Source: a virus
DNA length: 64,000 bases
Strand: one strand, 5' to 3'
Virus record (IMG/VR): IMGVR_UViG_3300013126_000010
Coordinates: 1 to 64,000 of that record
Shown: one piece after another, positions 6,367-53,489 of the stretch
Layout: every line of letters begins with the position of its first letter
Position numbering within the stretch: the first letter of the stretch is position 1
Program-made: the position numbers and the translations under genes
The notes under the pieces: generated by a model
Told to the model about the DNA's origin: nothing
Database searches by the model: none
What the model saw: the letters and a program-made list of their open reading frames with translations, nothing else

Positions 6367-6425
6367 AGTATAGGTCGCGGAATTGCCGTTCCCACCTATT
6401 CTAACATCACATGGAGATATCAGCA

Positions 6426-7328
6426 ATGTTATTTAGCAAAGAATCACATGGTTACGTGTATAAATGGACCGAATTATCTACTTGGAAATGGTATATTGGT
6501 AGTCGAAGCGCGAAAAATTGTCATACAGATGATGGCTACGTTTGTTCAAGTAAAATAGTCAAACCATTAATTCAAAATAATCCAGAGAATTGGGTTAGAG
6601 AAATACTATGGATTGGTGAGAGGAATTATGCTACATTGGTTGAGTCAGAATATTTAACATACCATAATGCTGCATCAAACGAAATGTCATATAATCAACA
6701 CAATAGTGATTATAAATGGAATAATACTGGAAGAACAATGCCACAAACACCAGAACATATTATAAAAAGAACTAGTAAACGAATAGGTTCAACAGTATCA
6801 GATGATTCTAAAAGAAAAATGAGTGAATCTGCTAAAGGAAAAATTATTTCAGCGGAAGCACGTGCTAATATGTCGAAAGCACAGTATGGTAGGAAACATT
6901 CAGAAGATACAAAAAATAAAATAAGAAGTAAATCATTGTTACGTAGACACAGTGATGAAACTAAGCAATTAATTAGTGAAAAACATAAAGGACGACCATC
7001 TACCAGAAAAGGAACCACGTGTTCTATAGTCTCTAAGGAAAAAATGTCAATTTCTCAAAAGAACAAAAAGAAGGGTACATGTATTCACTGTGGCGTAGTA
7101 ATGGATATTTGTAATTTGAAAAAATATCACAATGACAATTGTAGGTTAATCAACCCAGATATAATCAGAAATCAACATAATAAAGGTATGATTGTTTCTA
7201 ATGAAACTAGAATTAAACAATCTGAAAAAGCTAAGAATAGAATAAAACTAATATGCGAACATTGTAACAAGTCGATCAATAAATCGGCATATACAAGATA
7301 TCATGGTATTAATTGTAAACATAAATAA
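6426..7328 (+). CDS. Free-standing GIY-YIG homing endonuclease with NUMOD3 repeats and two Zn ribbons
   Basis: GYVYKWT...WYIGS...YVCSSK; HSEDTKNKI / HSDETKQLISEKHKG; CIHC..YHNDNC and CEHC..YHGINC. Start moved from 6411 to ATG 6426 because GGAG lies at 6413-6416. Confidence 0.85.
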   Translation: MLFSKESHGYVYKWTELSTWKWYIGSRSAKNCHTDDGYVCSSKIVKPLIQNNPENWVREILWIGERNYATLVESEYLTYHNAASNEMSYNQHNSDYKWNNTGRTMPQTPEHIIKRTSKRIGSTVSDDSKRKMSESAKGKIISAEARANMSKAQYGRKHSEDTKNKIRSKSLLRRHSDETKQLISEKHKGRPSTRKGTTCSIVSKEKMSISQKNKKKGTCIHCGVVMDICNLKKYHNDNCRLINPDIIRNQHNKGMIVSNETRIKQSEKAKNRIKLICEHCNKSINKSAYTRYHGINCKHK

Positions 7329-11670: not shown

Positions 11671-12051
11671 TTAGATTGCTGACAAGATAATCAATGTTTC
11701 TGTTGAATCGTCTTGTAATGTCCAAGTATATTTGTGTCCAGTGAAATCAACTGCGTGATGTCTGGTTAATTTTTTTATAGCTACCGGACCTGTGCCAATG
11801 ATGATACCAACCAATGCGCCTTCACCAGCTAGTACACCAGTAGTTTTATCTACTAAAGTTACATTTCCAGATTGTGTTTGATCAATGCTTTCTACTTTAA
11901 ATTTTCTAGTAGCACGTTGTTTTAGAATGTATCCGTTGAATTGTCCTGCACCAACATTTGCAATAATTGGTAATGTGTTTCCTGTGTTTAAACCAGTTCC
12001 GGTACCTAAACCTACTTGTCCAAACCATTTTTTGTTAATCGGTCTTCCCAT
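11671..12051 (-). CDS. Small late (probably virion) protein, MGRP-type
   Basis: MGRPINKKWFG...YILKQRATRKFKV; AGGAG RBS; late promoter upstream. Confidence 0.6.
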   Translation of the reverse strand: MGRPINKKWFGQVGLGTGTGLNTGNTLPIIANVGAGQFNGYILKQRATRKFKVESIDQTQSGNVTLVDKTTGVLAGEGALVGIIIGTGPVAIKKLTRHHAVDFTGHKYTWTLQDDSTETLIILSAI

Positions 12052-12115
12052 TTATTTTCTCCTATAATGAGTGTTCTATACTCTACGTGGTGGGTACCAC
12101 ATAAATCTGTAGACA

Positions 12116-12877
12116 TTAGTATTTATCTTTTTGTTTACAATTGTTATTATGGTATCGTTCATAAGCATTCATCGCTATTTCTTTACCACAATAAATGCAC
12201 AATTTAGTTGGGCATTTTCTTCCGCGTTGTGATTCTGCACGTTTTGCAACCATTTCTGGATCTTGTTTTCTTCCTATGGCTTTTTCTCGTATTTTATTTT
12301 TAGTTTCAGTGGATTGTTTTTTACCATACATATGGTTTTTTTCACCAGTTCGTGATTTTGATAAATTTTCTTTCCATTCGTCTGAAAATGGTTTTCGTAT
12401 TCTACCAATCATAGCTTGTTTCTGATTTATGTTTTCCTGTAACGGTTGAATTCGTCCTGTATTAGCAATCTTTATTTTAGCAATAGCTTCAGTGGTTTGC
12501 TTTTTACCATACATTGGGTTGTTAACTCCTGAAACCTTAGCGCTTTGTAATACGGAATATTCTGACTTAATTTTTTCATATACCTTACTAGTGATTTTGG
12601 TGTTATATCTATGTTGTGATTTATTATCAGCTCTCATGATTCTCATTGCATTGATCATTTTATAATATGCAATTGGGTCATTTTTGTGTATTTTGGTTAA
12701 TAACCAATGGCATATAAAATGCTCTCTAGCTGTTAGTCGCACCAAGTTTTCTTTTTTATTAGTACCTCCAAGGCTTTTTGGAATTATGTGATGTACTTCT
12801 ACATACGTTCCATCAATGAGTGTTCTGTTTTTGGCAGCTTCTGTAATCTGTTCATACCATATACTATATTTTGACAT
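12116..12877 (-). CDS. Free-standing HNH homing endonuclease with NUMOD3 repeats and a C-terminal Zn ribbon
   Basis: EVHHIIPKSLGGTNKKENLVRLTAREHFICHWLL; NPMYGKKQT / NHMYGKKQSTETK; CIYC..YHNNNC. Start moved to 12877 (MSKYSIWY) because ATG 12919 lies inside the promoter spacer. Confidence 0.88.
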   Translation of the reverse strand: MSKYSIWYEQITEAAKNRTLIDGTYVEVHHIIPKSLGGTNKKENLVRLTAREHFICHWLLTKIHKNDPIAYYKMINAMRIMRADNKSQHRYNTKITSKVYEKIKSEYSVLQSAKVSGVNNPMYGKKQTTEAIAKIKIANTGRIQPLQENINQKQAMIGRIRKPFSDEWKENLSKSRTGEKNHMYGKKQSTETKNKIREKAIGRKQDPEMVAKRAESQRGRKCPTKLCIYCGKEIAMNAYERYHNNNCKQKDKY

Positions 12878-24389: not shown

Positions 24390-24640
24390 AATTTTAGGCA
24401 TAGTATGCCATTGATAGTTCGATTATAATTATGTTTATATCTGGAGGTCAATAAATTGACCTAATCTTCAATATTTCTCATCATTCGTTCGTTCCTCACT
24501 CATGTGAGAAATATTTTGATTGTAGGGTTTTTTTCTTTTTATTTATTTACATGTATTAGAGAACAATATATGAAATTATTTAAAAATTATTAATGTTTTA
24601 TATTGTTCTTATAATTATGGTTTAAAATACACATTACTAG
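24390..24640. other. AT-rich inverted-repeat cluster (candidate origin / DNA unwinding element)
   Basis: IRs at 24397-24409, 24445-24462, 24470-24515, 24560-24609; 24541-24630 is ~13% GC by hand count; no ORF. Confidence 0.45.
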
Positions 24641-24649
24641 ATTGTGGAG

Positions 24650-25049
24650 ATGGATTGACGCTTGAATGACCAAGCGTCAAAAAAACTTTACTGAGTTGCT
24701 ATCGAAGTTCTAGACGGTAGGAATTTTTAGTGATGTTTCTCGTGATTCGGCTCTTAGCTGTACCGGTACCTACCTAGATTTTTAAGACCCTGCGCGTCAT
24801 TGGGTCATATCAGTCAACAAAACATCTGATGAAATAAATCATCCATGGATATTTCTATCCAACAACCTATACGATTACCGGAATGCTACTCAATGGTGGG
24901 AATGAGACATTTTAAGGCATCCTGAACCAAGATTCAGGGTAGACGGTAAAAGCCCAGCATTAGCGACTGGAATTGAGTACCTTATCACATCAGTAAGGAT
25001 TCCTCGGTGGAATAATGATCGGCCCACTAACCTTATGCTAATTTAGTGT
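24650..25049 (-). ncRNA. Putative structured non-coding RNA (~400 nt), family not recognised
   Basis: No ORF >30 codons found on either strand; ~41% GC; many stems; own promoter at 25054-25087; GAAA tetraloop and G-U closures fit the minus strand. Confidence 0.6.
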
Positions 25050-25053
25050 ATAC

Positions 25054-25087
25054 TTATTATATGTGTCGGGGATATGAAAAAAACAAC
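25054..25087 (-). promoter_or_regulatory. Bipartite promoter GTTGTTTTTTT-N10-ACACATATAATAA driving the putative ncRNA
   Basis: Perfect TATAAT; the same 34-bp architecture recurs at 31125-31158. Confidence 0.65.
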
Positions 25088-25106
25088 AACAGTTGAAAAT
25101 ATTTTT

Positions 25107-25559
25107 TTATAATTGATTGTTATATTCGATTTCTTCAATGGTTGGTTCGTTTACGTTAAATTTAACAGCCCCAATTTGCCCATTATAGAATTTTTTAGTA
25201 CCATCTGCAAGTCGGATTCTCATCACATCTTCCATTACTTGTGCCTTGACTTCTGCATAATATAAACTAGCTTTTGTTTTATGTAATGAACATATTTCAA
25301 ATCTATAATTACCAATGCCTTTTAATGCTATTTGTTCATTAAGTGCCTTACAACTTCCAGTATATTTTTTCCAGTCAGATTCTTTGTAGGTGATTTTTTT
25401 ATTCTTTTTACCTTTTACCGCTACTCTTCTCATCATTTTGAACTGTTTCTTTCCTAGATATTCTTTTCCAGTATCTAATTCAATAATTCTATAAATGAAA
25501 CCGAACCATTCTTCAGGATCAAAATCTTTCTTGACTATCCAATGTCCAGTATCATTCAT
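25107..25559 (-). CDS. Stand-alone GIY-YIG catalytic-domain protein
   Basis: GFIYRI...EYLGKK..MMRR...SDWKKYTGS...YYAE...FYNGQI; no NUMOD/HTH DNA-binding tail. Confidence 0.75.
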   Translation of the reverse strand: MNDTGHWIVKKDFDPEEWFGFIYRIIELDTGKEYLGKKQFKMMRRVAVKGKKNKKITYKESDWKKYTGSCKALNEQIALKGIGNYRFEICSLHKTKASLYYAEVKAQVMEDVMRIRLADGTKKFYNGQIGAVKFNVNEPTIEEIEYNNQL

Positions 25560-26112
25560 TGTCTAATCCTGCTTGTTCTCTGAGGCGTTTGATTGCATCC
25601 TCCATCTCTGCCTCAAATTCTTCTTCGGATCGCGCCAGCGCATCTATACGAGCTACACGGTACACTTCTGGATTAAAGCGAGGATCACGACTGTTTTGGA
25701 ATTGTTTTACTTGAAGACGACGAATATTAATTTGTTTCAATAATCGCATTATCCAGTAATACATACGTTCAGATGATGCAAAACTTCTAGATGTGCACCA
25801 TGATTCCATTTCAATAAAATATCGATGGAGTGCCTGCATTAATAATTGATGATCATCAAGATGTTGAGCAAATGTTTCTTCATTAAAAATAGAAACTCTG
25901 CCATTTTTGAAATATTTTTCTTCATCACCTTTAGGTTTGACATACCCTTCTGGGTATTTACGTGGTCTACCAGATGGGCGTTTGAAATCTAATTTGATGT
26001 CAGTATCTTTTATTTCTTTTTTTGGTCTACCACGAGGACGTTTAGGCTTATCCACTACTGGACGGGTACGTGGTCTACCCATTTTCTTTTTAGGTGTATT
26101 TTCGTCAGACAT
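25552..26112 (-). CDS. AT-hook DNA-binding protein
   Basis: Three GRP cores (KMGRPRT, RPRGRPKK, PSGRPRK) followed by a helical domain. Confidence 0.7.
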   Translation of the reverse strand: MSDENTPKKKMGRPRTRPVVDKPKRPRGRPKKEIKDTDIKLDFKRPSGRPRKYPEGYVKPKGDEEKYFKNGRVSIFNEETFAQHLDDHQLLMQALHRYFIEMESWCTSRSFASSERMYYWIMRLLKQINIRRLQVKQFQNSRDPRFNPEVYRVARIDALARSEEEFEAEMEDAIKRLREQAGLDNE

Positions 26113-26160
26113 AAAAAACCCATGATTACGATAGATTTATTTATCATCATAATCATGGGT
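26113..26160 (-). terminator. Terminator-like hairpin with the late promoter in its loop
   Basis: 16-bp stem (two G-U on minus), loop ATAAATAAATC, followed by T6 and then the ATG. Confidence 0.7.
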
Positions 26161-39400: not shown

Positions 39401-39909
39401 TATATGCATTGATGTCTACTAAATTGAATAAAATAAAATCAATTAGTGATGAAATTGTTTATCATCCAGTCAAATTCAAAATATTATTTGGACAAAAATC
39501 TAATCCAGATGTTCGTGCAACATTTAAAGTTGTCAAAAATTCAGAAATAGTAATTAGTGATAATGATGTAAAATCACAAGTTTTGACTGCTATAAATACA
39601 TTTTTTAATTTAGAGAATTGGGATTTTGGTGATAAATTTCATTTTAGTGAATTACAAACATATGTAATGAATCAAGTATCACCATATGTAGTGAACTTTA
39701 TTATAGTACCAACAATGACAGAATTAACATTTGGTAGTTTGTATGAAATAAATGCAGAAAAAGATGAAATATTTATCAATGGTGCGACAATAGATGATAT
39801 TGAAATAATTAATTCAATAACTGCATCAAAAATAAAAAGTGCAGGACAAATAGCACTTGAAACTACAGGTGTTACAAATATAACAATAACAAGCTCAAGG
39901 AATAACTAA
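36460..39909 (+). CDS. gp6: Baseplate wedge protein (T4 gp6-like)
   Basis: DFDNLR...DFNDYIESSE..ALIDLIAF...RESVLRLAKLLSYNPKR; APATYYTQNRMITGEDY; late promoter CATAAATA at 36428-36435. Confidence 0.88.
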   Translation: MSATDRQNRLLVAEDWKRIYQSYKNADFQSYDFDNLRRIMITYIRENYPEDFNDYIESSEYLALIDLIAFLGQSISFRTDLNARENFLELADRRESVLRLAKLLSYNPKRNVAATGLLKFVSVQTSQNVYDANGRNIAGHTILWNDTSNQNWFDQFIRVINASLSLSSQFGNPAGSATIYGIPTEQYRFQTKSTDVPVYSFSRTIEGKSMNFEVVSTGIRNAADIYEEPPLKGNKLAFLYRNDGKGYGSNNTGFFVQFKQGSLGSGSFTLTQPSTNESVDIDTPNINNNDVWLYQLDHDGNESTLWTEIPALEGNNVIYNSLSKAIKKIFAVSTRTNDRVSLLFSDGTFGDLPTGAFRTYYRSSNGLNYTINTKDMRNVILTLPYISNTNQLETITINMNLVTSVANSVESETNDSIKVNAPATYYTQNRMITGEDYNISPLSATQDVLKIKSINRSSSGISRYFDLVDPTGKYSKTNLFSDDGAIYIENYTDSFRFSYMTKTEIEYVINNKVLGALKSIELRDFYYNNFKKYLTTTDISWVTSTFDTNSYTGLLYYNSAPVAVGSGAQSGSLLRFITPGALLKFKYWDSVYNGYRYKWTTVSYVSGNGTTVENGIGPMYITDDVPAGAVLIQIIPALSTSLSTNLVSSLVDLIYENKPFGLRYDIETTSWKIIYDVDLNKSGDFSLLETGNTSRRHKDSSWLLLFTTDTEYYTVKQRLLRYVFESENQVRFYFNKGSKIYDSRSNIVVKDQIKILGINIQNQGEEPNDRIWEISNQFYGADGYVDNKKIQLSFSDTDDDGIVDNPSIFDEYVTNNEYIVQKGYDTDIGYEYKLSTDVYRYTKLGGVLVGGITEDGFAVVHDVIIVDNDTVDLTEYFIGTDDTHAVELYFYIVSSKVVKKLVWDTSTTKKLILSTERKVYNGKEKVKFQYIHNATNDARIDPGLTNIMDVYVLTKQYDTAYRQWVAGAILDKPLPPSSDSLYALMSTKLNKIKSISDEIVYHPVKFKILFGQKSNPDVRATFKVVKNSEIVISDNDVKSQVLTAINTFFNLENWDFGDKFHFSELQTYVMNQVSPYVVNFIIVPTMTELTFGSLYEINAEKDEIFINGATIDDIEIINSITASKIKSAGQIALETTGVTNITITSSRNN

Positions 39910-42900
39910 TGTCATATAATGATCAAAATGAACAAGGATTGCCAGCGGGTTCTTCACAAAAACGCCGCACTGCTTCTCTATTACCACAAGTATATAGAAC
40001 AGATAGTAATAGGAAATTTTTGCAATCTACGTTGGATCAATTAACACAACCGGGAACAGTTAAAAAAATCAATGGTTACATTGGAAGACAATATTCAAAA
40101 TCCACCACTAGTTCTGATATATTCTTAACAACTACAGATGCTGAACGTAGTTCATATCAATTGGAACCCGCAGCTGTAATCAAAGATGAGCTTGGAAATG
40201 TTAAATTCTACAAAGATTATATAGATCATATTAACCATATAGAACTGTTTAATGGTAATACTAAAAATCATGCACGTATTAATGATGAACAAGTCTACTC
40301 ATGGAATCCACATATAGATTTTGATAAATTTACTAATTATCAAAATTATTACTGGATGCCGTATGGACCAAAGCCTATAAATGTATATGGTGCATTAGGT
40401 GATATTGAAACAACAATGCCAGTATCGATAGTCGATGATGGTGATAATTTTTCATATGTATTTGACAAAGAAATCCAGACACGTAACCCAGAATTGGTAT
40501 TATACAGAGGTCAGACTTATATATTTGACATCATTAGTAAAAACAATCCATTTTATATTAAAACATCAAGATTGACGGGTATAGATGATATCTATGCCGG
40601 TAATATTTTGAATAATGGAATAGAATCAGGTAAATTGACAATTACCATTGACAGAAATACACCAAATATATTGTATTATGTTAGTAAAAATGATGAAAAT
40701 TTGAGCGGTGTTATCCGAATACTAGATTTAGATGAGAATAGTTCGTTAAATGTTGAAACTGATATTTTATATAAATCATCATATAAAATGCAAAATGGAT
40801 ATTATTTGTCCAATGGGATGAAATTAAAATTCCATGGAAACATCACCCCAACAAAATATTCTACTGGATATTGGTATGTGGAAGGTGTTGGTTCAAATAT
40901 ACAATTAATATCAGAAAATGATATTGCTCTTCCTAGCACAATCAGAAACTCTAAATTTGATTATGATCCGTTTGATTCTACTGCATTTGATATGCAGAAA
41001 TCTTTTCCACATGGTAAGGATTATATTGTTATCAACAGAGCATCCATGGATAGGAACGCATGGTCTAGATCGAATAGATGGTTTCACCAAGATGTTATTA
41101 TACAATCTGCTGAATTAAATAATGTATCTCCAGATTTAGATCAGTCATTTAGAGCTATTAGACCTATTATTGAATTCGAACCAAATATAAAGCTTGTTAA
41201 TTTTGGGCATAAGTGTAAATCAGATATTGATTTAATTGATTTTGAAACAAAAGATGTATTTTCTACGATAGAAGGTTCGTTAACACATTACGTAGATGGT
41301 GTGAAACTAGCAAATGGTATGAGAGTTATATTTGCAGCTGATACTGATAGCATGGTTAATGGAAAAATATACAAAGTAGAATATGTAACTATTAATGTTC
41401 CTGGTAGAACAGTAGGTTTTTCTATAGCAGGCGTAAATATTGGTGATAATACTATTTCATTTACTGAATCACATGGGTTCCAAGATGGTATCCAAATAAC
41501 ATATGTGAATAATGGCTTTCCAGATTTGGGAGGATTAATTAATAGAAACATTTATTTTGTTAAAGTAATATCAGAAAAAGTAATTAAGCTATTTAAAGAT
41601 GTTGGGTTACAGATTCCAGTATATATTTCATCGTTGGGCACAAATAGTTCATTAGTCCAACAAAGTTTTGAAATCTACTTAGGAAGACGTAGACAAATAA
41701 TGTTAATTGAGGAAGAAGATACAAACCCACTAACAAATGAGATTGTATTAGTAAAGAATGGTAAATCTAATATTGGTAAAATATTTTGGTATAATGGTAC
41801 CAATTGGACTCAAGGACAAGAAAAAAATAGTACAAATCAATCTCCGCTATTCGACGTATTTGATTCAAATAAACAAAGTTATATGGATGCAACAGTATAT
41901 CCATCATCTACATTTATTGGTACAAAACTATTTTCTTATAAAAGTGGAACAGGTCTCATTGATACAGAATTAGGGTTTCCATTAACATATAGAAGCATTA
42001 ATAACATTGGTGATATTTCATTTGATTTTAATTTATTGAGTGATTCATTTAATTACACTACTGGTAGTAAATTGATATCTCATAATATTTCAGATGGGTA
42101 CTTACAACGAATAAAAACTCTTGAAGACGTGGACTATATTAATGGATGGGATTTATGTTCGGTATCTGATATACAAGGTATTATTAGAATATACAAAAAC
42201 ACCACTATAACCAGCGATTTTTTAATTGATGTTTTTGACACTATACCTGCAGATAATGATTTAAGGGTGAAAGTTTACAAAAATGGAGTTAAGTTATCAA
42301 ATTCTGAATATTCTGTTGAAAGTAAAAATTATAAAAAATATGTTGTATTATCTACTCCTGCATTAGCGTCTGATATTATAACATTGAAATTGTATTCTAC
42401 ACGATATAAGAATGAAAATGGTTTTTATGAAATACCAATTAGTTTACAAAATAATCCATTGAATAATGACATTACTCAGTTTACTTTGGGACAAGTTGTT
42501 GATCATGTTAATGGTATAACAGAAAATATACCTGGGTTTGATGGGATTTTTCCAGGTTCTAGTAACTTGCGTGATCTAGCCGCTGTTCATCAATATGGTA
42601 CTAGATTTGTTCAGCATTTATGCCCAATGAATTTTAGTTTGTACCACCTTGGGTCAAAATCAGCTAATTTGGTAGAGGCTATTGTTGCTGCGGGGGATGA
42701 TTATGGAAAATTCAAACGTGCATTCTTGACAGTTGCAAATCAATTAGGAATACATACCGAACCTAAAGAACATGTTGATGCCATATTAGCAGAAATTACG
42801 AAAAATAAAGCTACATCATCGTCTTATTATTTGTCAGATATGATTGCATATACTGGCACTGTTAAAAATGAGTACATAGTGCTAGATGCTAGGACTACTG

Positions 42901-45900
42901 CATACCCATTATCAAGAACATTTTCAATGAATGTGTTGTCGAATAATGCTGTATTAGTATACTTGAATGGTGTTCAACTATTGCATGGTACTGATTATGT
43001 ATTTTATGATGATTTTGTTGATATTTCCACACAACTTGCTGAAGATGATGTAATTACAGTATTTGAGTATGACTCTACGGACGGTTCATGTTGTCCACCA
43101 ACACCAACTAAATTAGGGTTATATCCAAAATTTGAACCTAAAATTTATATTGATAATACTTATTTAGAACCAACAAAAGTAATTCAAGGGCACGATGGAA
43201 GTATCACAGTGGCATTTAATGACTACAGGGATGATTTAATATTAGAATTAGAAAAACGCATTTATAATAATATTAAAATTAGTTACAATGCGTCGATGTT
43301 TGATATTAATGATTATATCCCAGGATATAATAGAACAACTGATTATACTCGTGAAGAAGTGAATGAAATAATTAGCCAGTCATTCTATCAATGGACCGGT
43401 TTGGTAATTGTAGATTTCACAAAAAATCAAGCATTTGATAGAGAAAATCCATTTACATATAACTATTTTGAAAATTATGCACCGAATGGAACAAATATAC
43501 CATCATATTGGAGAGGTATATTTAACTGGATGTATGATACAGATAGACCACATCTGTGCCCATGGGAAATGCTAGGGTTTTCAGAAATACCAGTATGGTG
43601 GGAGTCAACGTATGGTCCTGCTCCGTATACTAGTAATAATGAAATATTATGGGATGATATTAAACAGGGGATAATTAGAGAACCTGGACGACCTGTAGTG
43701 GTTAATGAAAAGTATATTAGATCCGTATTAGAATTTGGGTTACCTGTTGATGAAAATGGGTCGTTGGTCGATCCTATTCAATCAGGGATTGCATTAGGTG
43801 TGGTAAACATGTCTGGTAATTCTCATTTTATAATTGGTGATGGTAGCCCCGTAGAAACAACATGGAAAAAGTCTAGTTATTTTCCCTTTGCATTATTACG
43901 TGCTATATTGGTAATGAAACCAAATGATGTAATAGGTAAATGTTTTGATAGAAGTAGAATCCATAAAAATATTGTTGGACAATATGTATATACTACTGGT
44001 AAAAGAATTATATTGCAGGATTTGGTTATACCATCTACTTATACAAGTGATAATCGTGTACAAACATCCGGTTTGGTAAATTATTTGGTTGAATTTATTA
44101 ATAGTGAAGTCCAAGTAAGATTAACAGATTATATTTCTGATTTACAATTATTAACTAATAATATCAGTTCAAAGATGGGAGGATTTAGTTCAAAAGAAAA
44201 ATATAGATTATTGATGGACTCTAAATCACCAACAACTCCAAGTGGAAATTTTGTACCAGAGGAAAATTATCAGATATTTCTGAATACATCATCAGTGGTG
44301 AGAAAAGCAGTATATAGTGGTGTAGTTATAACCAAGACTTCGGAAGGATTTGAAGTAAAAGGATATAGTATTGATACTCCGTATTTTAATGTGAACCCAT
44401 TTTTGGATTCTGGTAGAACTATCCGAATCGGTGGGATATCAGAAAGCTTCGTTGAATGGACACCAAGTACATATTATGTGGCAGGTAAAGTAATTGACAA
44501 TAATGGAAGGTATTATAGAGTTAATACTACCCATCGTTCAGGTGATGCATTCGAACCAAGTTATTTTAACGTCATGGCTGAATTACCAGTATATGGTGGC
44601 GCAGAAGTTACTCTACGTAAATCGTGGGACACCAGAATATCTACTGTGGTGAATTATGGTACATTGTTAGATACTGTTCAAGATGTTGCTGACTTTTTAC
44701 AAGGATATGGATCATATTTGGAAAATCAAGGATTTATATTTGATAGTTATTCATCAGATATTCAAAATGTTTACAACTGGCAGATGATGGTCAAGGAATT
44801 TCTATTTTGGACAACACAAAATTGGCCAGAAAATTCTGTTATATCATTAAGCCCATCTGCTGAAAAATTAAAATTAAAAATACCATATACTGTTGTAAAT
44901 GATATAAATGATCCATTCTTTAAGTACGAAGTTATGGATGTTAGTGGTAAGCCAATTGATTATACAAAATTGTCCACTTACCGAGATGGGTCCGAGTTTA
45001 CATTAACTAGTACAGATGCGAACATCGGTGTCTATGGTGCTACGTTATATGCGGTTCAAAAAGAGCATGTGTTAATATTAGATAACAAAACCATATTTAA
45101 TGATGTTATATATGATTTAGAGCCTGGATACCGTCAAGAACGAATCAAAGTATTAGGCTATATCTCTCGTAATTGGGATGGTGGTTTTGATATACCAGGA
45201 TTTATCTTTGATCAGGCAAACGTGTATGATTGGGAGCCATGGACAGATTATCATTTTGGTGACACTGTAAAACATAAAGAGTTTTATTATAGTGCAAAGT
45301 ATTTTATACCAGGGACAGTAGAGTTCAATGTATATGATTGGGTAAAACAATCAGACAAACCAGTTTCTAGGATGCTACCTAATTGGGATTATAAAGCTGA
45401 ACAGTTTACTGATTTTTATGATTTAGATACTGATAATTTTGATTCTCAGCAACAAAAAATGGCACAACATTTAATTGGGTATCAGAAACGTCAGTATTTG
45501 GAAAATATTATCAAAGATGACGTGAGCCAATATAAATTTTATCAAGGAATGATTATTGAGAAAGGTACTGCAAATGTGTTCAGTAAACTGTTTGACGTAT
45601 TAAGTGCTACTGATAAAAACAGTGTTGATTTTGATGAAGAATGGGCAATTAGAGTTGGTGAGTATGGTGCAGTAGATGTATTCGATACGGTTGAAATACA
45701 ACTAGATGAGACTAAATTTGTAATGAACCCACAAGGTATTGAGTTTGTACCAGCGATTATTCCTGACATTCAAGATCATATCTACAGGTTTACCAAGGAT
45801 TCTATCTACATAAATCCTAAAGACGTAGATGATAATACAGTTGTTAAATGGAAAGAAAAAATACAATCTGGTACATTACGTACTCCTGGATATGTTAGAT

Positions 45901-48900
45901 ATGATGATGTTGATTATAGTATTGATAAATTAGAAGATTTATTAGACACTGATGTTAATTTATATTCAGAGCATCAGATATTCTGGTGTGCGTTTAATGA
46001 TAAATTACATGATTCTAATTTTAGATATTGGGATGTATATAGTTTTGAAAAGTATATAGGAACATGGACCTCGATTTGTGAAGAATCACAGGTTATGAAA
46101 ATATCATTAGATCCGCTGTCACTTATTAATATATCAGCTGGCGATGTTATTGGTATTAAATCAGGCAATTTTACTAAATTCGTTATAGCTGATATTAATA
46201 CTACTAGTGATACATTAACTATCGTTGATAATAATTTTTCTATTAATGATACATTATCAAACATTGAAATATATGTTTTTAATTCATTGAGATATGGTAA
46301 CCAGTTATCTCAGAGTGACTTTGTATCACAAATGAGCCAATGGAATCCATCAGTAAAATATATATGGGGTGATTGGGTACAAAATGGTGTGACACAAGGT
46401 TGGGAAGTATACAAAAATAATGGATCATTATTTGATAATACTATTTTGTATTCTGTTGATGATATTGTAGTTTACAATAATTCATATTATATTGTTATTG
46501 CAGAAAGTATAGGACATTTACCAACTGATACATCTTATTTTGAATTATATGTTGGTGATAAATGGTCCATTCATCATTCAAGTGAATGGACCATAGACTC
46601 ATCTATTATCAAAAAGGCGTATTTGTATAATAAAGATACGAGTGAGTTAGTCAGATATATTGATTTAGTAGATGTTGTCAATGGTAAGATACCTGGGATA
46701 GCTGATCAAGAAATAAAATATAAAATGTATAATGACCCAGCGGTATATTCCGTTGGAACAGCAAACGTTAAAGTATTACCAGAAGCTAATTGGGGGGCAA
46801 CTCAAGTAGGACAGCTGTGGTGGGATTTGACACGTGCCAAATTCATTGTAAGCAACGACAATGAAATTGAATATAGAACTAATACATGGAATCAATTGTA
46901 TAAATCTGCTAGTATTGATATATTTGAATGGGTTGAATCATCTATCCTCCCAGCAGATTGGGATGATTTAGATGGTACAGAAGAAGGATTGGCGCTTGGA
47001 ATAAGTGGAAGATCAAAATATGGAAATTCTTCTTACTCAGTTGTCACAAAGTTTGATAATGTAACAGGGATCTATTACAACACCTATTATTTTTGGGTTA
47101 AGGGAAAACAAATTACACCAAACGTGGGATTTAGAAATATAGATGCATACAATGTTGCAGCTATCATTGGTAGCCCAGAAAATACTGGATATCCTTGTAT
47201 ATCAGTAACCAGTACGTCATCATTTATATTAACAAATATAGAACAATACCTGGACCAAACTAACATCATATTAGTTATTGAATACTGGAATGTAGATAAA
47301 GTAGACGCTAATTATCATACAGAATGGAAATTGGTGAGTGAAAACATTAATACGGAGTTACCAACGCACATTGAGCAAAAGTGGATTGATAGTTTAATTG
47401 GTTATGATTATAATGAGAATCGTATACCGGATTACTCACTAAAACCAAAACAACGGTATGGTATTGAAAATAAACCACGTCAGTCAATGTTTATTAATAG
47501 GTTGGAAGCACTTAAACAGGTTATTGAACGAACTAATAATGTATTAAAGACTAATTTAATAGCAGATGATTTTGATTTGTCGCCGTTAATGAAATATGAT
47601 TTGCCACCATCATCGGTGTCTGGTAAATGGGATGTAACGGTTGATTACGACACAGAACTTCAGTATATTGGAACGGCATTATTAAAACAAGCAGAAATAT
47701 CCTTATATATTGTTGATGGTAGAATAGAGGCTGTTAATATAACAGATCCTGGATATGGCTATGTAAACCCACCAGAAGTTGTTATTGCTGGTAATAATGG
47801 ATGTAATAATCAAGCGAAAATTATTTTAACATTGGATAACAACGGGTCGGTATCAACTGCTGAAATCATTGATCATGGTGAAAATTACACTGACGAAACT
47901 GTTGCGACTATTAGACGATTTGCAGTATTGGTTCTAAGTGATAGCCAGAATGAAGACAGATGGGTTATTAGACATTGGTATGAAAATTATAAAAGCTGGT
48001 TGGTACGTCAGGTACGAAAATATGACGTAAGAAAGTGTTGGTATTATATTGACTGGTACGCTACTGGTTATAATCAATTTACTAGTATAAACCATGTAGT
48101 TGATAATACTTCACAATTATATACCAGTTCACATAATATTGGTGATATTGTTAAAGTAAAAAACATTGGAACTGGTGGATGGTTATTATTACAAAAGTAT
48201 AATGAGTTAGTTACTACAGATTATACTAAAATATATAATGTTATTGGTAGGGAAAATGGAACTATCCAATTCTCTGATATATTGTATGATTATGATACTA
48301 ATATATTTCCAGGAACTATCCAAAATCCAGACCCATATGCATTCAATTTACGAAATGAATTGAGAGTTATATTGTCGGCAATAAAAGATAATTTATTAGT
48401 TGATAATTTACGTATTGAATATTTGAAATTATTTTTTGCATCAGTTCGTTATATACTATCTGAACAAATATACACTGACTGGATATTTAAATCATCATTT
48501 ATTAAAGTTACGCATAATGTTGGAGAATTAAAACAAAAAGTAACGTATAATAGTGACAACTTGGAAAGTTTTGAAGATTATATAAATGAAATTAAACCAT
48601 ATAGAACCAAAATTCGTGAATATGTAAGCGTGTATGATGGTTATGATAACTCTAATTCTAATATAACTGATTTTGATTTTCCATCGGTGGTTACATCAGA
48701 CAATATTTACGCCACGATCAATAATTATGTAAGTGAAGATGGAACATTAGTAGTAGATGATAACTATTATACTAATATTAGTCCATGGAAATCATGGTAT
48801 GATAATATAGGATTTAAAGTATCATCGATTAATATCATAGATGGCGGGTCAGGCTATACCAAAGCACCAATAGTAAGATTTATTGGTGGTTATGGAAAGA

Positions 48901-51900
48901 ACGCAGAAGCGACTGCATTTATTTCAAGAGGAAAAGTTAACCGAATAGTATTGGACAATCCTGGGACTGGGTATTTAAGTGCACCAATTATTGTATTGGA
49001 TGGTGGTGTATCATCAGCCGGTGTTACCGCACGTGCAAGTGTAACAATAGAATCAGAAGCTGCTAGGTCAACCAAGATCACCATGAAGTATGATAGGGTT
49101 GCTAAAGGCTATTCTATAACTGATTTATTATATAACGAAACCTTTACTGGAACAGGTACACGACAACAGTTCAAATTAATATTCGCGCCAGATTTGAGAG
49201 TTAATACAGCATCAGTATATGTTGATGGTGTAGAACAATTGCATAATAGCTATTATGTTGCAGTAAAAACTGACACATCAATGGGATATACAAGGTATTA
49301 TGGTACCTTAACATTGGTGACAGCACCTAGAAAAAATAGTGTTATTGAAATAACTTATTTAAAAAATATTGAATACTTGAATGCCAATGATAGAATACAG
49401 TTTAATTACAACCCATCATATGGTAATCCAGGGAAAGATTTATCATTATTAATGAAAGGTATTGATTATGGTGGTGTAATAGTAACTGGTGGTGGTTTTC
49501 AATTTGCGAATGGATGGGACAGTATACCATGGGATAGTGATGAATGGGATGCATTTGACCCAGGATATGATAATTGGTCAATATCTGTACCAAGGGATAC
49601 CGGTATAATTCAATTGCCATATACTCCAGATGTTGGCGAAAAAGTTAATGTATATGTTAATAATATCAGAGTTGATGAACCAACTTTTGTAGCACCACAT
49701 GAAAACATCATTATGGGAACAATTGTTGGTGATGGATTAAAAAATTCTTTCACTATTCCTGGAGATATTCCATCAACAATATATGACATTGGTCAACAAT
49801 ATAATAATAATTTGGTAGTATCAGATTACACTGATAGAAATATAATTATTATTGGTGGTGGTTCGGTCCAAATACCAGCTGGTCAAACAGTAATGGTTGA
49901 CACTTTTTCAAAATATAGTACTACATCAATTCGTTATGATATTGCATATTCTAATGCAGGGGTGTACGGGTATATTGAATTAATATTGATTAATAATCCA
50001 TATACTGCATCAAGTGTCAATGGTAACACAATAGTGTATGGTGGTGGCGGTGCAACCCCTGAGATCGATCTTGGTTTCATGAGATTAACAGTTGAGCAAG
50101 ATCCTTTATCATCGAGTGATATATTATTAAATGTTCATGCAACCAATACAGTTATCGTAACTTACACAAAGTGGGATTTTTCCAAAGGTGGTATTTATAA
50201 TGAAGTGACGAGTAGAATAAATGACCCATTGTTTGAAATTTCAAGTGACAGTTTAACCATCTATGAAATGGAGGAAACAGTTATTGACGAATTTGATAAA
50301 AATGAATTTTATAGTGGATGTTATTATATTCAATTAGTAAGCGACTCGTTTGTCCAATTATTAGAAGTTGAGTTGGTGCACAATGGTGTGGATATTAATA
50401 TCGATATTATATCCACAGATGGTGATATTATTTTAGATACTATGCAAAATGGTGATTCATGGATATCAAGTTATATTGAAAACGATAATATATTATTGTC
50501 ATTAAAAACCATATATGATAAAGTTACCGTAGTTTATTCTAGAGTAATGTTACCATCACTGACAATTAGAGAAGTTGATATAACCGATGTAAGAAGATTA
50601 TCGTCAGATGGTGAATATGCAATAATACCATTTCAATATCAATCGACTAGTACAACACGTGTATTAGTCGATTCATTTGATTTTGGTCATTATGCATACT
50701 GTGATTTTCAAATACAGTTAATTGGATCAGTGGCTACCCAAGTATATGATATTGATGTATTTATTGATCCAAATATAATAGGTACATTTGAGTTTGTGGT
50801 AAAAAACAATACATATGTTGGTAGGGAATGTGGGTACTTTACTGGATCATTGAATGGAGATTCTTTTGAATTATATTTTACACCATATGAGGCGAATGTT
50901 CAGATTACTGGAGTAAAACGGTTATTGGGTAGACCTGGGGTACCTAACATTAATCAACAAGATGAACTTGGATTAGACAATCTATTTAATATAATGTTTA
51001 TAAAACAAACATCTGATGGTGGTGTATCAACTAACCCATATATTGATGAATATGAATTGGGGTTATATGATTATGATGTGCGATTAATTGGTGGAATATT
51101 CGAGGATAGTACGGTTATTGGATATAAACCAGATGATGTTATCACAGATGGGGATGGTTTTATTACACCATCAACCAGTTATGCACCTGAAGAATTATTA
51201 CCTGGGCATATGGCTGATTCTGTTGCTATTAAGGTTTATCAATTACCAACTAGTGGCTCACCAAAAGTAATTAATAATAGATACATACCAGATGGTACAA
51301 CTACTGTATATAGCTACGGACAGGATGTACCAACTGGTAATCATGTGATAGTAACACAGCGCCGTAGTGTGTCTGGAAAAATTAAGAATGTTACTATACC
51401 GTCATCTGATTATGTGCTTGATACGTCGAATCATACAGTAGTATTTAATGTTGCACCAACTGGTGATGCTATAACCGTATCTAGTTTTGGATTTAATTCA
51501 TATATGTTACTGGATACAGACATTATAACTATCAACAAGGCCACTGATGTTATTGTAACCAATGCTCCGTGGATGTTAGGAAATGTGAAAGCAACAGTAC
51601 TTGTCAATGGCAACACATACCAATATGAATTGTTTAGAACGACTGAAAAAGAGCAAAAAATAGAAGTGACTGGGATTAGATTTGGAGCTAAATTACCAAA
51701 GAATACTATTGTTCAGTATATGATTGAACAAAGTGATACTGGTAATATTAATACCAGTACTACTAGTGTAATGGATATCGATACCACTCAATCATATACC
51801 GGACCTGCGGATTATGTTATGAGTGTATCAGCAATATCACCAAACGTGTTGGTGTTGATAGATGATGTACTGTTAAGTCCTGGCAAAGTAGTCACCAAAG

Positions 51901-53489
51901 AAGTAACTCAGAATGATATGTCGGTTAGAATACCAGAATATATGGTCTCAGCATATGAATTAAATTATTCAAATGTTGAAGTATATAGTCATACAAAACA
52001 ACTGCGTTATATTACAGATTATAATATCGAATCAGCATCTGGTGTAATAATATTGACTGAAACGGTATCACCAGGATTAATAACGGTATTGGTCAAAGAT
52101 GCTACTTGTGAATATACAATAAGTGATATGACACTAACTATAACCAAGAATCTACCAGCAGGTAACATGAAAATAATAAGTTTTTATGATTATGGATTAT
52201 TGGAATTAGATAGACGAGTTGATTCAATTTCATCAGCAACTAATATAATAACAAACCCAGTGGATCAAGCAATCTTCACCGGAATGCAACATGGTATATT
52301 TGTGTTGAAAAAACCAGTATTATCATTAGATTATATTTGGGTATCGAAAAACGGGAATATTTTAACCAGAAATATCGATTATACAATAAATGTAGATCTT
52401 ATAAAAATCACATTAACAGATGCATTACTTCCAACGGATGTTGTTCAAATTATCACATTTAGTAATAATATTATTAAAGCATCGTTAGGATTTATGCAAT
52501 TTAAAGATATTTTGAATAGGGACCACTATAAAAGACTAGATGGAACGATGGTAACATCTTTGGCAATGGATTTGGCACAATTTGATACAACAATCTATGT
52601 GGAAGATGGTAGTAAATTAGATGACCCAACCCCTGCAGTGACCGAGAATCAGGTTACTATAATAAATGGTCAACCATTTACACATGCTGTTTCTACTTCT
52701 CCAATTCCAGGAATTATTGAAATTAATGGCGAACGAATTGAATATTTTACAAAGAATGGCAATGAATTGTCTGATTTACGAAGAGGAACATTGGGGACTA
52801 GCTCACCGACTATCCATAAAATACAAACTAATGTGTTGAATATGGGTAGATCAGAAACTATTCCGTATAATGATTTAAATAACATTGAATCGTTTGTTAC
52901 TAAACGTAAAACTAGAATAGTTCCAGTCTCATTTATTCCACGTAGAAGATGTGATAATCCACGAAATGTAGTGAATGTAAGCCACTTATCAGAAATTTTA
53001 GAACCATCCGCCTATACATATTATTTTGTTGATGGTGGTACTGAGTTGTGGTTCTATCATAATGGTCAATGGGATGTAGTAAATCAATATTCAGTAACCG
53101 ATGATGTTGAAGTATTTGTTGGTGGTGTTAGGTTGAAAAAAGATTGGTATACTACATACGGTAATACCAATTACCCATATAGTCCAGAAGGTGATATCGA
53201 ACATACACCAGAGTTTATGGTAAATGGTACTGGATATTATATAAAATTAACAAAGAGTGTTCCCAAAGGAGTAGGAATAACAGTAGTCAGAAAAACAGGT
53301 AAAGAATGGTATGATATGAATAATGAAGATTTGTCTACTGCTAATAATAATATTGCTAGATTTATTAGATCGGTGGAGTCATCATGGCCACAATATTTAG
53401 TTGATAAATACCAATATATAGTAGCAATGGATTCTAATATATCTTTAGAATCTGATGGTACAACATCTGACATTATTGAACTGGATTAA
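39909..53489 (+). CDS. Giant multidomain baseplate/virion protein (4526 aa; gp7-like position)
   Basis: Single uninterrupted ORF, TAATG-coupled to gp6; cupredoxin-like, CBM5/12-like, Ig-like (YLNGVQL..GTDY) and PGxGY..P.V repeats. Confidence 0.8.
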   Translation: MSYNDQNEQGLPAGSSQKRRTASLLPQVYRTDSNRKFLQSTLDQLTQPGTVKKINGYIGRQYSKSTTSSDIFLTTTDAERSSYQLEPAAVIKDELGNVKFYKDYIDHINHIELFNGNTKNHARINDEQVYSWNPHIDFDKFTNYQNYYWMPYGPKPINVYGALGDIETTMPVSIVDDGDNFSYVFDKEIQTRNPELVLYRGQTYIFDIISKNNPFYIKTSRLTGIDDIYAGNILNNGIESGKLTITIDRNTPNILYYVSKNDENLSGVIRILDLDENSSLNVETDILYKSSYKMQNGYYLSNGMKLKFHGNITPTKYSTGYWYVEGVGSNIQLISENDIALPSTIRNSKFDYDPFDSTAFDMQKSFPHGKDYIVINRASMDRNAWSRSNRWFHQDVIIQSAELNNVSPDLDQSFRAIRPIIEFEPNIKLVNFGHKCKSDIDLIDFETKDVFSTIEGSLTHYVDGVKLANGMRVIFAADTDSMVNGKIYKVEYVTINVPGRTVGFSIAGVNIGDNTISFTESHGFQDGIQITYVNNGFPDLGGLINRNIYFVKVISEKVIKLFKDVGLQIPVYISSLGTNSSLVQQSFEIYLGRRRQIMLIEEEDTNPLTNEIVLVKNGKSNIGKIFWYNGTNWTQGQEKNSTNQSPLFDVFDSNKQSYMDATVYPSSTFIGTKLFSYKSGTGLIDTELGFPLTYRSINNIGDISFDFNLLSDSFNYTTGSKLISHNISDGYLQRIKTLEDVDYINGWDLCSVSDIQGIIRIYKNTTITSDFLIDVFDTIPADNDLRVKVYKNGVKLSNSEYSVESKNYKKYVVLSTPALASDIITLKLYSTRYKNENGFYEIPISLQNNPLNNDITQFTLGQVVDHVNGITENIPGFDGIFPGSSNLRDLAAVHQYGTRFVQHLCPMNFSLYHLGSKSANLVEAIVAAGDDYGKFKRAFLTVANQLGIHTEPKEHVDAILAEITKNKATSSSYYLSDMIAYTGTVKNEYIVLDARTTAYPLSRTFSMNVLSNNAVLVYLNGVQLLHGTDYVFYDDFVDISTQLAEDDVITVFEYDSTDGSCCPPTPTKLGLYPKFEPKIYIDNTYLEPTKVIQGHDGSITVAFNDYRDDLILELEKRIYNNIKISYNASMFDINDYIPGYNRTTDYTREEVNEIISQSFYQWTGLVIVDFTKNQAFDRENPFTYNYFENYAPNGTNIPSYWRGIFNWMYDTDRPHLCPWEMLGFSEIPVWWESTYGPAPYTSNNEILWDDIKQGIIREPGRPVVVNEKYIRSVLEFGLPVDENGSLVDPIQSGIALGVVNMSGNSHFIIGDGSPVETTWKKSSYFPFALLRAILVMKPNDVIGKCFDRSRIHKNIVGQYVYTTGKRIILQDLVIPSTYTSDNRVQTSGLVNYLVEFINSEVQVRLTDYISDLQLLTNNISSKMGGFSSKEKYRLLMDSKSPTTPSGNFVPEENYQIFLNTSSVVRKAVYSGVVITKTSEGFEVKGYSIDTPYFNVNPFLDSGRTIRIGGISESFVEWTPSTYYVAGKVIDNNGRYYRVNTTHRSGDAFEPSYFNVMAELPVYGGAEVTLRKSWDTRISTVVNYGTLLDTVQDVADFLQGYGSYLENQGFIFDSYSSDIQNVYNWQMMVKEFLFWTTQNWPENSVISLSPSAEKLKLKIPYTVVNDINDPFFKYEVMDVSGKPIDYTKLSTYRDGSEFTLTSTDANIGVYGATLYAVQKEHVLILDNKTIFNDVIYDLEPGYRQERIKVLGYISRNWDGGFDIPGFIFDQANVYDWEPWTDYHFGDTVKHKEFYYSAKYFIPGTVEFNVYDWVKQSDKPVSRMLPNWDYKAEQFTDFYDLDTDNFDSQQQKMAQHLIGYQKRQYLENIIKDDVSQYKFYQGMIIEKGTANVFSKLFDVLSATDKNSVDFDEEWAIRVGEYGAVDVFDTVEIQLDETKFVMNPQGIEFVPAIIPDIQDHIYRFTKDSIYINPKDVDDNTVVKWKEKIQSGTLRTPGYVRYDDVDYSIDKLEDLLDTDVNLYSEHQIFWCAFNDKLHDSNFRYWDVYSFEKYIGTWTSICEESQVMKISLDPLSLINISAGDVIGIKSGNFTKFVIADINTTSDTLTIVDNNFSINDTLSNIEIYVFNSLRYGNQLSQSDFVSQMSQWNPSVKYIWGDWVQNGVTQGWEVYKNNGSLFDNTILYSVDDIVVYNNSYYIVIAESIGHLPTDTSYFELYVGDKWSIHHSSEWTIDSSIIKKAYLYNKDTSELVRYIDLVDVVNGKIPGIADQEIKYKMYNDPAVYSVGTANVKVLPEANWGATQVGQLWWDLTRAKFIVSNDNEIEYRTNTWNQLYKSASIDIFEWVESSILPADWDDLDGTEEGLALGISGRSKYGNSSYSVVTKFDNVTGIYYNTYYFWVKGKQITPNVGFRNIDAYNVAAIIGSPENTGYPCISVTSTSSFILTNIEQYLDQTNIILVIEYWNVDKVDANYHTEWKLVSENINTELPTHIEQKWIDSLIGYDYNENRIPDYSLKPKQRYGIENKPRQSMFINRLEALKQVIERTNNVLKTNLIADDFDLSPLMKYDLPPSSVSGKWDVTVDYDTELQYIGTALLKQAEISLYIVDGRIEAVNITDPGYGYVNPPEVVIAGNNGCNNQAKIILTLDNNGSVSTAEIIDHGENYTDETVATIRRFAVLVLSDSQNEDRWVIRHWYENYKSWLVRQVRKYDVRKCWYYIDWYATGYNQFTSINHVVDNTSQLYTSSHNIGDIVKVKNIGTGGWLLLQKYNELVTTDYTKIYNVIGRENGTIQFSDILYDYDTNIFPGTIQNPDPYAFNLRNELRVILSAIKDNLLVDNLRIEYLKLFFASVRYILSEQIYTDWIFKSSFIKVTHNVGELKQKVTYNSDNLESFEDYINEIKPYRTKIREYVSVYDGYDNSNSNITDFDFPSVVTSDNIYATINNYVSEDGTLVVDDNYYTNISPWKSWYDNIGFKVSSINIIDGGSGYTKAPIVRFIGGYGKNAEATAFISRGKVNRIVLDNPGTGYLSAPIIVLDGGVSSAGVTARASVTIESEAARSTKITMKYDRVAKGYSITDLLYNETFTGTGTRQQFKLIFAPDLRVNTASVYVDGVEQLHNSYYVAVKTDTSMGYTRYYGTLTLVTAPRKNSVIEITYLKNIEYLNANDRIQFNYNPSYGNPGKDLSLLMKGIDYGGVIVTGGGFQFANGWDSIPWDSDEWDAFDPGYDNWSISVPRDTGIIQLPYTPDVGEKVNVYVNNIRVDEPTFVAPHENIIMGTIVGDGLKNSFTIPGDIPSTIYDIGQQYNNNLVVSDYTDRNIIIIGGGSVQIPAGQTVMVDTFSKYSTTSIRYDIAYSNAGVYGYIELILINNPYTASSVNGNTIVYGGGGATPEIDLGFMRLTVEQDPLSSSDILLNVHATNTVIVTYTKWDFSKGGIYNEVTSRINDPLFEISSDSLTIYEMEETVIDEFDKNEFYSGCYYIQLVSDSFVQLLEVELVHNGVDINIDIISTDGDIILDTMQNGDSWISSYIENDNILLSLKTIYDKVTVVYSRVMLPSLTIREVDITDVRRLSSDGEYAIIPFQYQSTSTTRVLVDSFDFGHYAYCDFQIQLIGSVATQVYDIDVFIDPNIIGTFEFVVKNNTYVGRECGYFTGSLNGDSFELYFTPYEANVQITGVKRLLGRPGVPNINQQDELGLDNLFNIMFIKQTSDGGVSTNPYIDEYELGLYDYDVRLIGGIFEDSTVIGYKPDDVITDGDGFITPSTSYAPEELLPGHMADSVAIKVYQLPTSGSPKVINNRYIPDGTTTVYSYGQDVPTGNHVIVTQRRSVSGKIKNVTIPSSDYVLDTSNHTVVFNVAPTGDAITVSSFGFNSYMLLDTDIITINKATDVIVTNAPWMLGNVKATVLVNGNTYQYELFRTTEKEQKIEVTGIRFGAKLPKNTIVQYMIEQSDTGNINTSTTSVMDIDTTQSYTGPADYVMSVSAISPNVLVLIDDVLLSPGKVVTKEVTQNDMSVRIPEYMVSAYELNYSNVEVYSHTKQLRYITDYNIESASGVIILTETVSPGLITVLVKDATCEYTISDMTLTITKNLPAGNMKIISFYDYGLLELDRRVDSISSATNIITNPVDQAIFTGMQHGIFVLKKPVLSLDYIWVSKNGNILTRNIDYTINVDLIKITLTDALLPTDVVQIITFSNNIIKASLGFMQFKDILNRDHYKRLDGTMVTSLAMDLAQFDTTIYVEDGSKLDDPTPAVTENQVTIINGQPFTHAVSTSPIPGIIEINGERIEYFTKNGNELSDLRRGTLGTSSPTIHKIQTNVLNMGRSETIPYNDLNNIESFVTKRKTRIVPVSFIPRRRCDNPRNVVNVSHLSEILEPSAYTYYFVDGGTELWFYHNGQWDVVNQYSVTDDVEVFVGGVRLKKDWYTTYGNTNYPYSPEGDIEHTPEFMVNGTGYYIKLTKSVPKGVGITVVRKTGKEWYDMNNEDLSTANNNIARFIRSVESSWPQYLVDKYQYIVAMDSNISLESDGTTSDIIELD

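Follow-up and report, generated by a model that had tools for sequence, protein, structure and literature searches.

In the ColE1 RNA II system, a long RNA has to fold for a persistent hybrid to be formed, and a primosome assembly site, which is a single-strand loading signal, lies downstream. Large ornate RNAs, among them GOLLD and ROOL, are also found in phages, and for most of them no function is known. The T4 origins oriF and oriG, in the portion of PMC3016281 available to us, are multiple dispersed origins of about 100 bp, where a promoter, a transcript and an AT-rich unwinding element follow in this order; they have little sequence in common and require no folded RNA, and R-loop origins of this type need no particular sequence or fold. 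In the papers on RaK2-like jumbo phages that were searched, replication origins have not been mapped.

The element described here, with its putative promoter, appears to present the same order of parts as the T4 origins and is likewise dispersed and multiple, whereas it contains a conserved covarying RNA (300–950 nt in the different copies) and a conserved downstream segment. Compared with the ColE1 RNA II system, it is phage-borne and multi-copy. Its RNA is similar to GOLLD and ROOL in large size, many helices, pseudoknots and phage location, although it gives no Rfam match to either and is accompanied by dispersed copies and an origin-like DNA segment. We give a probability of about 45% to the reading in which this stretch, as one of several dispersed copies of an element found in RaK2/GAP32-type jumbo phages, acts as a transcript-primed origin of the T4 oriF/ColE1 kind, endowed with an ornate RNA, the adjoining nuclease gene being an optional late neighbour. 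The RNA-plus-DNA element itself is real and largely undescribed. No paper describing this RNA element was found in the largely open-access literature searched, and the words 'intergenic', 'non-coding' and 'origin of' are all absent from the available part of PMC5259590.

The window, that is, the whole stretch of 64,000 nucleotides analysed, corresponds to positions 1–64,000 of a virus contig of 184,707 bp (C1) with an estimated completeness of 52%. The nearest cultured kin of its baseplate hub (about 30% identity) and of its gp46 (30–44%) are jumbo phages of the RaK2/GAP32/PA5oct/Atu_ph07 type. Read along the minus strand, the genes come in the following order: late sigma factor, 253-aa GIY-YIG homing endonuclease, gp47, gp46, 100-aa gene, 186-aa AT-hook gene, 150-aa GIY-YIG gene and, across a gap of 758 nt, a 394-aa gene. 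An earlier note on this DNA had proposed the AT-hook protein, the 150-aa nuclease and a structured RNA as one new module; the two reading frames were confirmed with an overlap of 8 nt, and the three parts are all there, without behaving as a single unit. Elsewhere in the window, a 305-aa ORF (6411–7328, +) with a GIY-YIG-like start and a weak tblastn match (E 0.22) is probably the second homing endonuclease counted in that note; an Rfam freshwater-2 RNA above cut-off (54.4 bits; 12049–12126, −) lies directly upstream of a 126-aa ORF (11671–12051), and a 4526-aa ORF (39909–53489, +) is found in the tail/baseplate region. Further along the contig, the minus strand of an ORF-free gap (C1:124260–124796) looks tmRNA-like by eye, possibly permuted and with a tag-like reading frame, and tRNA-like genes lie near it (C1:123209–123700).

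Table 1. Features of the locus, in window coordinates, with the basis of each assignment.
Feature	Position	Strand	Basis
Whole non-coding element: RNA of about 420 nt, AT-rich stretch, 130-nt repeat and palindrome segment	24430–25060	RNA on −	
RNA 3' core and terminal hairpin (24655–24680) flanked by ACTCAG and ATCTAG	24632–24811	−	83–91% identity to each of the other two copies
RNA variable region, without guide-like character; the second copy has about 100 nt more here	24812–24907	−	48% paralogue, 90% orthologue identity
5' domain of the RNA, made of three stems, CTACCC, a hairpin and GGATG; architecture resembling Rfam Polynucleobacter-1	24908–25034	−	Alignment, descriptor
TATAAT, putative −10 hexamer for transcription of the RNA, without clear −35	25056–25061	−	Sequence
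AT-rich zone (85%), which may serve as a DNA unwinding element	24510–24630	.	Composition ranking in contig
Downstream DNA segment overlapping the AT-rich zone; GAACG repeats (24483–24502), palindrome GGTCAATTTATTGACC (about 24446–24461); candidate protein-binding site	24430–24559	.	97% paralogue, 59% orthologue identity
Tailless SegE-like GIY-YIG nuclease, 150 aa (PF19835, phrog_447)	25107–25559	−	Profile and predicted fold
186-aa protein: disordered N-terminal AT-hook region and helical hairpin (residues about 86–141)	25552–26112	−	Homologues, profiles, model
Hairpin and then T-run before the AT-hook ATG; putative late promoter GATAAATA in the loop (26138–26145)	26118–26160	−	Sequence, fold −25.4 kcal/mol

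The non-coding element extends further than had been thought, since it runs past position 24650, where the module of the earlier note starts, to about 24430. The structured RNA was borne out by the comparison of three copies, namely that of the window, a paralogue in the same contig and the orthologue of the close relative L001 (79% identity over the element): 11 of the 69 predicted pairs change on both sides, and C-to-T changes preserve pairing on the minus strand only. Single-sequence folding gives no signal for this RNA (minus-strand z −0.41); a plus-strand reading (z −2.47) was ruled out by the wobble pairs, the promoter side and the strand of the PA5oct transcript ncRNA004. An Rfam scan of both own copies returned no family, and likenesses to RNase P, tmRNA and group I/II RNAs, noticed by eye, found no support in Rfam or ARAGORN. 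The promoter, previously placed some 20 bp after the nuclease gene, is reduced to a −10 hexamer 46 nt past the stop, and a sigma70 scan on the 5' side of the RNA in the window called none. The second copy (C1:162,067–162,780) lies between a 100-aa gene, which looks ClpS-like from its translation, and a 269-aa gene, with neither a GIY-YIG nor an AT-hook gene beside it; it stands after a terminator, with a clear sigma70-type promoter (C1:162,860–162,935) having the late-type GATAAATA between its two hexamers. Apart from the segments whose values are given in Table 1, identity to the paralogue and orthologue is 61/83% in the 5' domain, 83/90% in the core, 91/87% in the 3' hairpin and 51/49% in the AT-rich zone.

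To judge from its position and motifs, the window RNA probably belongs to a multi-copy RNA family of the RaK2 clade. Members of this family are located between gp46 and gp51/gp26, have extra dispersed copies and show a 3' hairpin beyond which come repeats and a palindrome, an arrangement which the window fits. The link is of moderate strength and runs through synteny and through a 5' domain that appears related to Polynucleobacter-1 (RF01718; PMC2864571), whose stem order seems to resemble that of the window; RF01718 spans 141 positions and is apparently only one optional 5' module. The 37-bit cut-off of RF01718 is passed by the 5' part of the long RNA in two syntenic relatives, with 64.2 bits in L095 and 38.7 bits in L097, with no match above cut-off in the window or its contig and none in PA5oct, BF, RaK2 and Atu_ph07. 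The 5' domain of the window has 23 of 25 nt in common with L097 (E 4e-5, in a small database). Moreover, a stem descriptor (CTAYCC..GGAYG), written after the window copy had been seen, matches both own copies, L001, L097 and L241 and misses L095, L246, L254 and L259; its background was one match in 20 shuffled contigs and none in 498 kb, and within the contig it finds exactly the two own copies. Covariance of the 3' core, as captured in model R1, joins the environmental, BF and PA5oct RNAs, the top nine matches all falling on RNA loci (E 1e-24 to 0.08; L095, L097 and L098 strong, the BF and PA5oct copies weak), with no match in the window, L016 or L001. Model R3, built from window-type copies, ranked the same L097 stretch first among 19 loci (E 0.012) and found nothing in 55 further loci. 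As the window is missed by R1, by a second model (R2), by RF01718 and by the nhmmer profiles of the family, evidence from the relatives transfers to it with a confidence of about four in five only.

A scan of viral DNA for one motif of the element gave at least 120 stretches, 80 of which had full flanks and were analysed, the 40 short ones being left out of the context scoring. In syntenic viral loci, a gap containing common motifs occupies the corresponding position, and 40 representatives among the matches listed present a core of about 330 nt with covarying helices and a pseudoknot; covariation is also strong in 24 enteric copies, including a pseudoknot between a loop and a distant strand. 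Five cultured RaK2-like phages carry 3–5 dispersed RNA copies each. Those of BF lie at 30, 93, 174 (174.4–175.2), 259 and 335 kb, with a similar layout in GAP32, XbC2 and Munch, and there are four copies in 121Q, one of them at 326.6–327.3 kb, and three in PA5oct. With blastn, 4–6 places per record were found in 66 records among the matches listed, and a search of Atu_ph07 found no copy. The probability of the smallest gap between copies is 0.002–0.005 for four genomes, which are close kin and in which terminal repeats would shorten one gap; in 121Q (p 0.05) and PA5oct (p 0.19) the copies are not clearly evenly spaced. Their shared orientation is uninformative, since most genes are on one strand.

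Transcription has been described in PA5oct, where Table 1 of PMC7318152, in the part available, lists ncRNA004 from RNA-seq at 246116–246734 (+), with a low and early-biased abundance (0.08/0.03/0.02% of phage reads). This transcript coincides with the 246-kb copy (246.0–246.9 kb), from its promoter to just beyond the 3' hairpin; the other two PA5oct copies, at 12.9 and 75.8 kb, are not in the list of four ncRNAs given in that part of the paper, and the accessible part of bioRxiv 10.1101/406421 mentions five. In PA5oct (L173:13525–15039), four tiny annotated 'hypothetical' CDS coincide in part with the RNA element; they are unlikely to be genes.

Outside phages, five matches were obtained in bacterial genome contigs, two by chance within genes and three RNA-like, the nuclease being absent from the 1.5-kb flanks of these three. 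The core motif of the family was seen in Terasakiella pusilla (L385, a 7-kb scaffold with a resolvase-like gene near) and in Pseudomonas sp. BBP2017 (L386), copies which may belong to a plasmid or island. As regards the other viral scans, three of four loci were due to chance in one, another found the contig of L001 only, and in another 24 of 25 loci were without profile match; a gp46 scan gave 2 loci. A metagenome DNA scan gave 72 loci, the element being present in none of those listed, and a profile search of all 72 produced short weak matches only (best E 0.002). Many of them were tandem repeats in bacterial intergenic DNA, whose interpretation as origin iterons was dropped; many bacterial metagenome contigs (L020–L091) have intergenic tandem repeats with a 22-nt period and a 19-nt word in common with the RNA core, apparently by chance.

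In the origin reading, host RNA polymerase would make the RNA of about 420 nt, which would fold during its synthesis, the fold being indicated by covariation and the transcript coming from the PA5oct relative only. The 3' end of the RNA would remain in an R-loop, paired to the DNA of the AT-rich zone, and would prime leading-strand synthesis, while the exposed strand, together with the downstream repeat and palindrome segment, would load the phage replication proteins. R-loop, priming and replisome loading are proposed by analogy with ColE1 RNA II and with T4 oriF/oriG, the latter as presented in the available part of PMC3016281. In favour of this reading, the AT-rich zones of the two copies rank first and joint second among the 121-nt windows of the contig and both directly follow the RNA, composition being retained between copies at a sequence identity of about 50%; at 80 nt they rank first and third. 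Over the 130 nt downstream, identity is 97% between own copies and 59% to the orthologue, a pattern to be expected if a factor encoded by the genome recognizes the site, and gene conversion could be an alternative cause of the 97% identity. Furthermore, mini-hairpins with GNA or GNNA loops, which are stable in single-stranded DNA, occur past the RNA on the sense strand: 31 were counted in 26 of 41 environmental loci among the matches listed, compared with 2.3 in shuffles, and 27 in 21 of 24 enteric copies, where shuffles gave 1.6 and the antisense strand 0. The copies spread round the genomes of cultured relatives and the low, early-biased PA5oct transcript point the same way. Against it stand the strict mini-hairpin test on the three window-type copies, which gave 0; the zone after the RNA in environmental relatives, which shows no AT enrichment (62% vs 61% AT, higher in 24 of 41, among the matches listed); the zone of the second copy, which falls outside the top eight at 150 nt, so that one only is found there; and the weak promoter of the window. 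The main objection is that the many covarying helices and pseudoknots exceed what a primer seems to need, since T4 origins need no fold while the RNA here is ornate.

The chief rival of the origin reading, which we hold to be unlikely, is a non-coding RNA acting in trans, as a GOLLD/ROOL-like scaffold, a ribonucleoprotein or a ribozyme, the AT-rich zone and palindrome then being no more than the sites where the RNA terminates and the next gene is controlled. It accommodates the dense covariation with pseudoknots, the invariant unpaired motifs, the promoter that each copy has of its own, the discrete PA5oct transcript and the copies in bacterial contigs. Nevertheless, it leaves unexplained the 97%-identical DNA beyond the RNA end, the extreme AT zone and the mini-hairpins outside the RNA, and the PA5oct transcript is rare, with less than 0.1% of reads compared with 1–5% for ncRNA001/002 in the available part of PMC7318152.

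Improbable, in turn, is a non-autonomous mobile or selfish sequence spreading between sites, whose hairpinned 3' flank would be read by a nuclease or recombinase encoded elsewhere. The unrelated contexts within one genome, the RaK2 copies at 7.2 and 280 kb with none at the gp46 site, and the Terasakiella copy near a resolvase-like gene are in line with such spreading, whereas the copy number is steady at 3–6, positions are held across BF, GAP32, XbC2 and Munch, and RNA distances track those of gp46 (rho 0.72, 7 loci).

As for the nuclease, the 150-aa protein is a member of a widespread stand-alone SegE-like GIY-YIG family. It matches Pfam SegE_GIY-YIG with E 7e-33 (113.9 bits, curated cut-off 25), and its tblastn relatives are distributed over 831 phage records (543 with at least 80% query cover), mostly cyanophages and FelixO1-like phages; in its own contig, 52% complete, it is the single gene of the family. 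The predicted fold (pLDDT 92.7) has the I-TevI catalytic domain as its best structural match (Z 8.4, rmsd 2.6, 82 aligned), followed by PD-T4-3 (Z 6.5), T4 EndoII (Z 4.9) and UvrC (Z 4.7); Foldseek by itself gave a weak match (E 0.33), and a PDB sequence search with the GIY profile gave none. The phrog_447 label 'NAD synthetase' receives no support from the fold. The fold and, it appears, most catalytic residues are common to this protein, the I-TevI catalytic domain, EndoII and SegE-like PF19835/phrog_447. The retention of the likely catalytic residues, as stated previously, holds for the Y, Y-G, E and N positions (all 55 of 55 homologues have Y23, Y34, G36, K37, E103, E110 and N126) and not for the Arg after the YIG motif, which is variable (R45 in 34 of 55; R114 in 46 of 55).

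The absence of a DNA-binding tail had been taken to mean that specificity must come from elsewhere. This inference fails, since tailless GIY-YIG enzymes such as EndoII, with a chain of 134 residues, act without RNA, and a missing tail therefore does not imply a guide. Tailed versions of 355–405 aa fill the same slot in L095, L259, L266 and L278. In other relatives the slot between gp46 and the RNA is occupied by endonuclease VII (BF, GAP32, 121Q and XbC2) or by a RusA-like gene (PA5oct), and, as resolvases fill this position, albeit on the opposite strand, the nuclease is most likely a late cutter of branched or single-strand-containing DNA, structure-selective and predicted to work independently of the RNA. 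The interval next to gp46 and endonuclease VII has extra genes in Munch and RaK2 (L199:402–1358; L202:732–1763), which suggests an insertion hotspot.

An AT-hook model matches all six full-length homologues of the 186-aa protein, obtained among 111 candidates of similar length, only weakly (best E 0.0024), and residues 86–141 match the profile of 32 small helical proteins (E 1e-4) which come after gp46 throughout the phage clade and carry the GRP[RK] motif in 0 of 32 cases. The model of the protein has a pLDDT of 59; a structure search gave no fold match, Atlas matches were all below 0.9, and comparison of the helical domain with Histone H1-like Hc1 in Pfam and PHROG gave no significant family for five of five proteins. 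The hairpin upstream of the gene, described before as a late-only switch, was confirmed: it has a T-run and ATAAATA in its loop, and is retained in L001 despite letter changes. Within the contig, xATAAATA has 40 occurrences at most 60 nt upstream of 184 long ORFs, and TAAATA precedes one of 30 distant homologous genes. From these two distributions among distant homologues (GRP[RK] 0/32, TAAATA 1/30), the AT-hooks and the late hairpin are read as lineage-specific additions to a small helical gene, whose product is probably a late DNA-binding protein. Late-promoter and hairpin control has been reviewed for T4 endonuclease genes in PMC2988022, and, as far as the available part goes, the arrangement upstream of the AT-hook gene fits their late control.

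The relationship between nuclease and RNA was one of independence in both directions, an outcome which the earlier note had listed among those that would refute its module. The second RNA copy of the same genome has neither gene; among the matches listed, a GIY-YIG gene lies upstream of the RNA in 50 of 80 loci (47 of 74 with enough sequence, 23 of 42 non-redundant) and is absent from 19 of the 42; the nuclease family was found in none of the five cultured genomes with 3–5 RNA copies, a positive control having passed; and of 91 loci retrieved through the nuclease, among which some are short or duplicated, 5 contain the RNA core, L001 adding a window-type copy. The nuclease gene is probably an optional, mostly vertically inherited neighbour of the RNA.

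That the nuclease optionally acts at the RNA site is plausible, more than half of the loci having its gene immediately upstream of the RNA. To this extent, the earlier idea of a nuclease that processes the primer or nicks an adjacent origin keeps a plausible origin-like zone, with nuclease action there as an option only, and that of a late maturation or packaging complex keeps a plausible late DNA-processing role. As an explanation of the locus, however, an origin or RNA gene on which the late tailless nuclease acts optionally, by nicking or resolving R-loops or by homing next to it, seems quite improbable. The same-strand position directly upstream of the RNA, seen in 47 of 74 loci among the matches listed, the patchy presence between close sisters (at least two changes on a gp46 tree of 10 rows, made of 9 of 44 representative loci and the window), the tailed versions in the same slot and the late hairpin control resembling that of T4 endonuclease genes (PMC2988022, in its available part) agree with it; the occurrence of the family in other contexts, in FelixO1-like phages and cyanophages, does not, and GIY distances follow those of gp46 (rho 0.59, 8 sequences), which fits ordinary linkage. 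Finally, it is very improbable that nuclease and AT-hook protein form an obligate ribonucleoprotein with the RNA as guide or scaffold: adjacency, also in L001, and a basic beta-hairpin in the nuclease would suit it, but nuclease and RNA each occur without the other, AT-hooks are missing from the 32 distant homologues, and the RNA offers no guide-like match in the contig, its 'variable' part being 90% identical between orthologues and its longest match elsewhere in the contig (15 nt) lying within the range of shuffles (13–16).

These results remove the case for a new RNA-guided GIY-YIG system at this locus. More tentatively than for the element itself, it may be proposed that RaK2-type jumbo phages and their many uncultured relatives start replication at several spaced origins, each set by a large pseudoknotted RNA which would, by folding, hold its own 3' end in place at an AT-rich element and pass a hairpin-marked single strand on to the replisome, Polynucleobacter-1 being one interchangeable 5' module. 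The element is present in cultured phages (BF, GAP32, 121Q and PA5oct) at known coordinates, so that the proposal is directly testable. If the origin reading is true, it would provide a function for a class of large RNAs and for an orphan Rfam motif.
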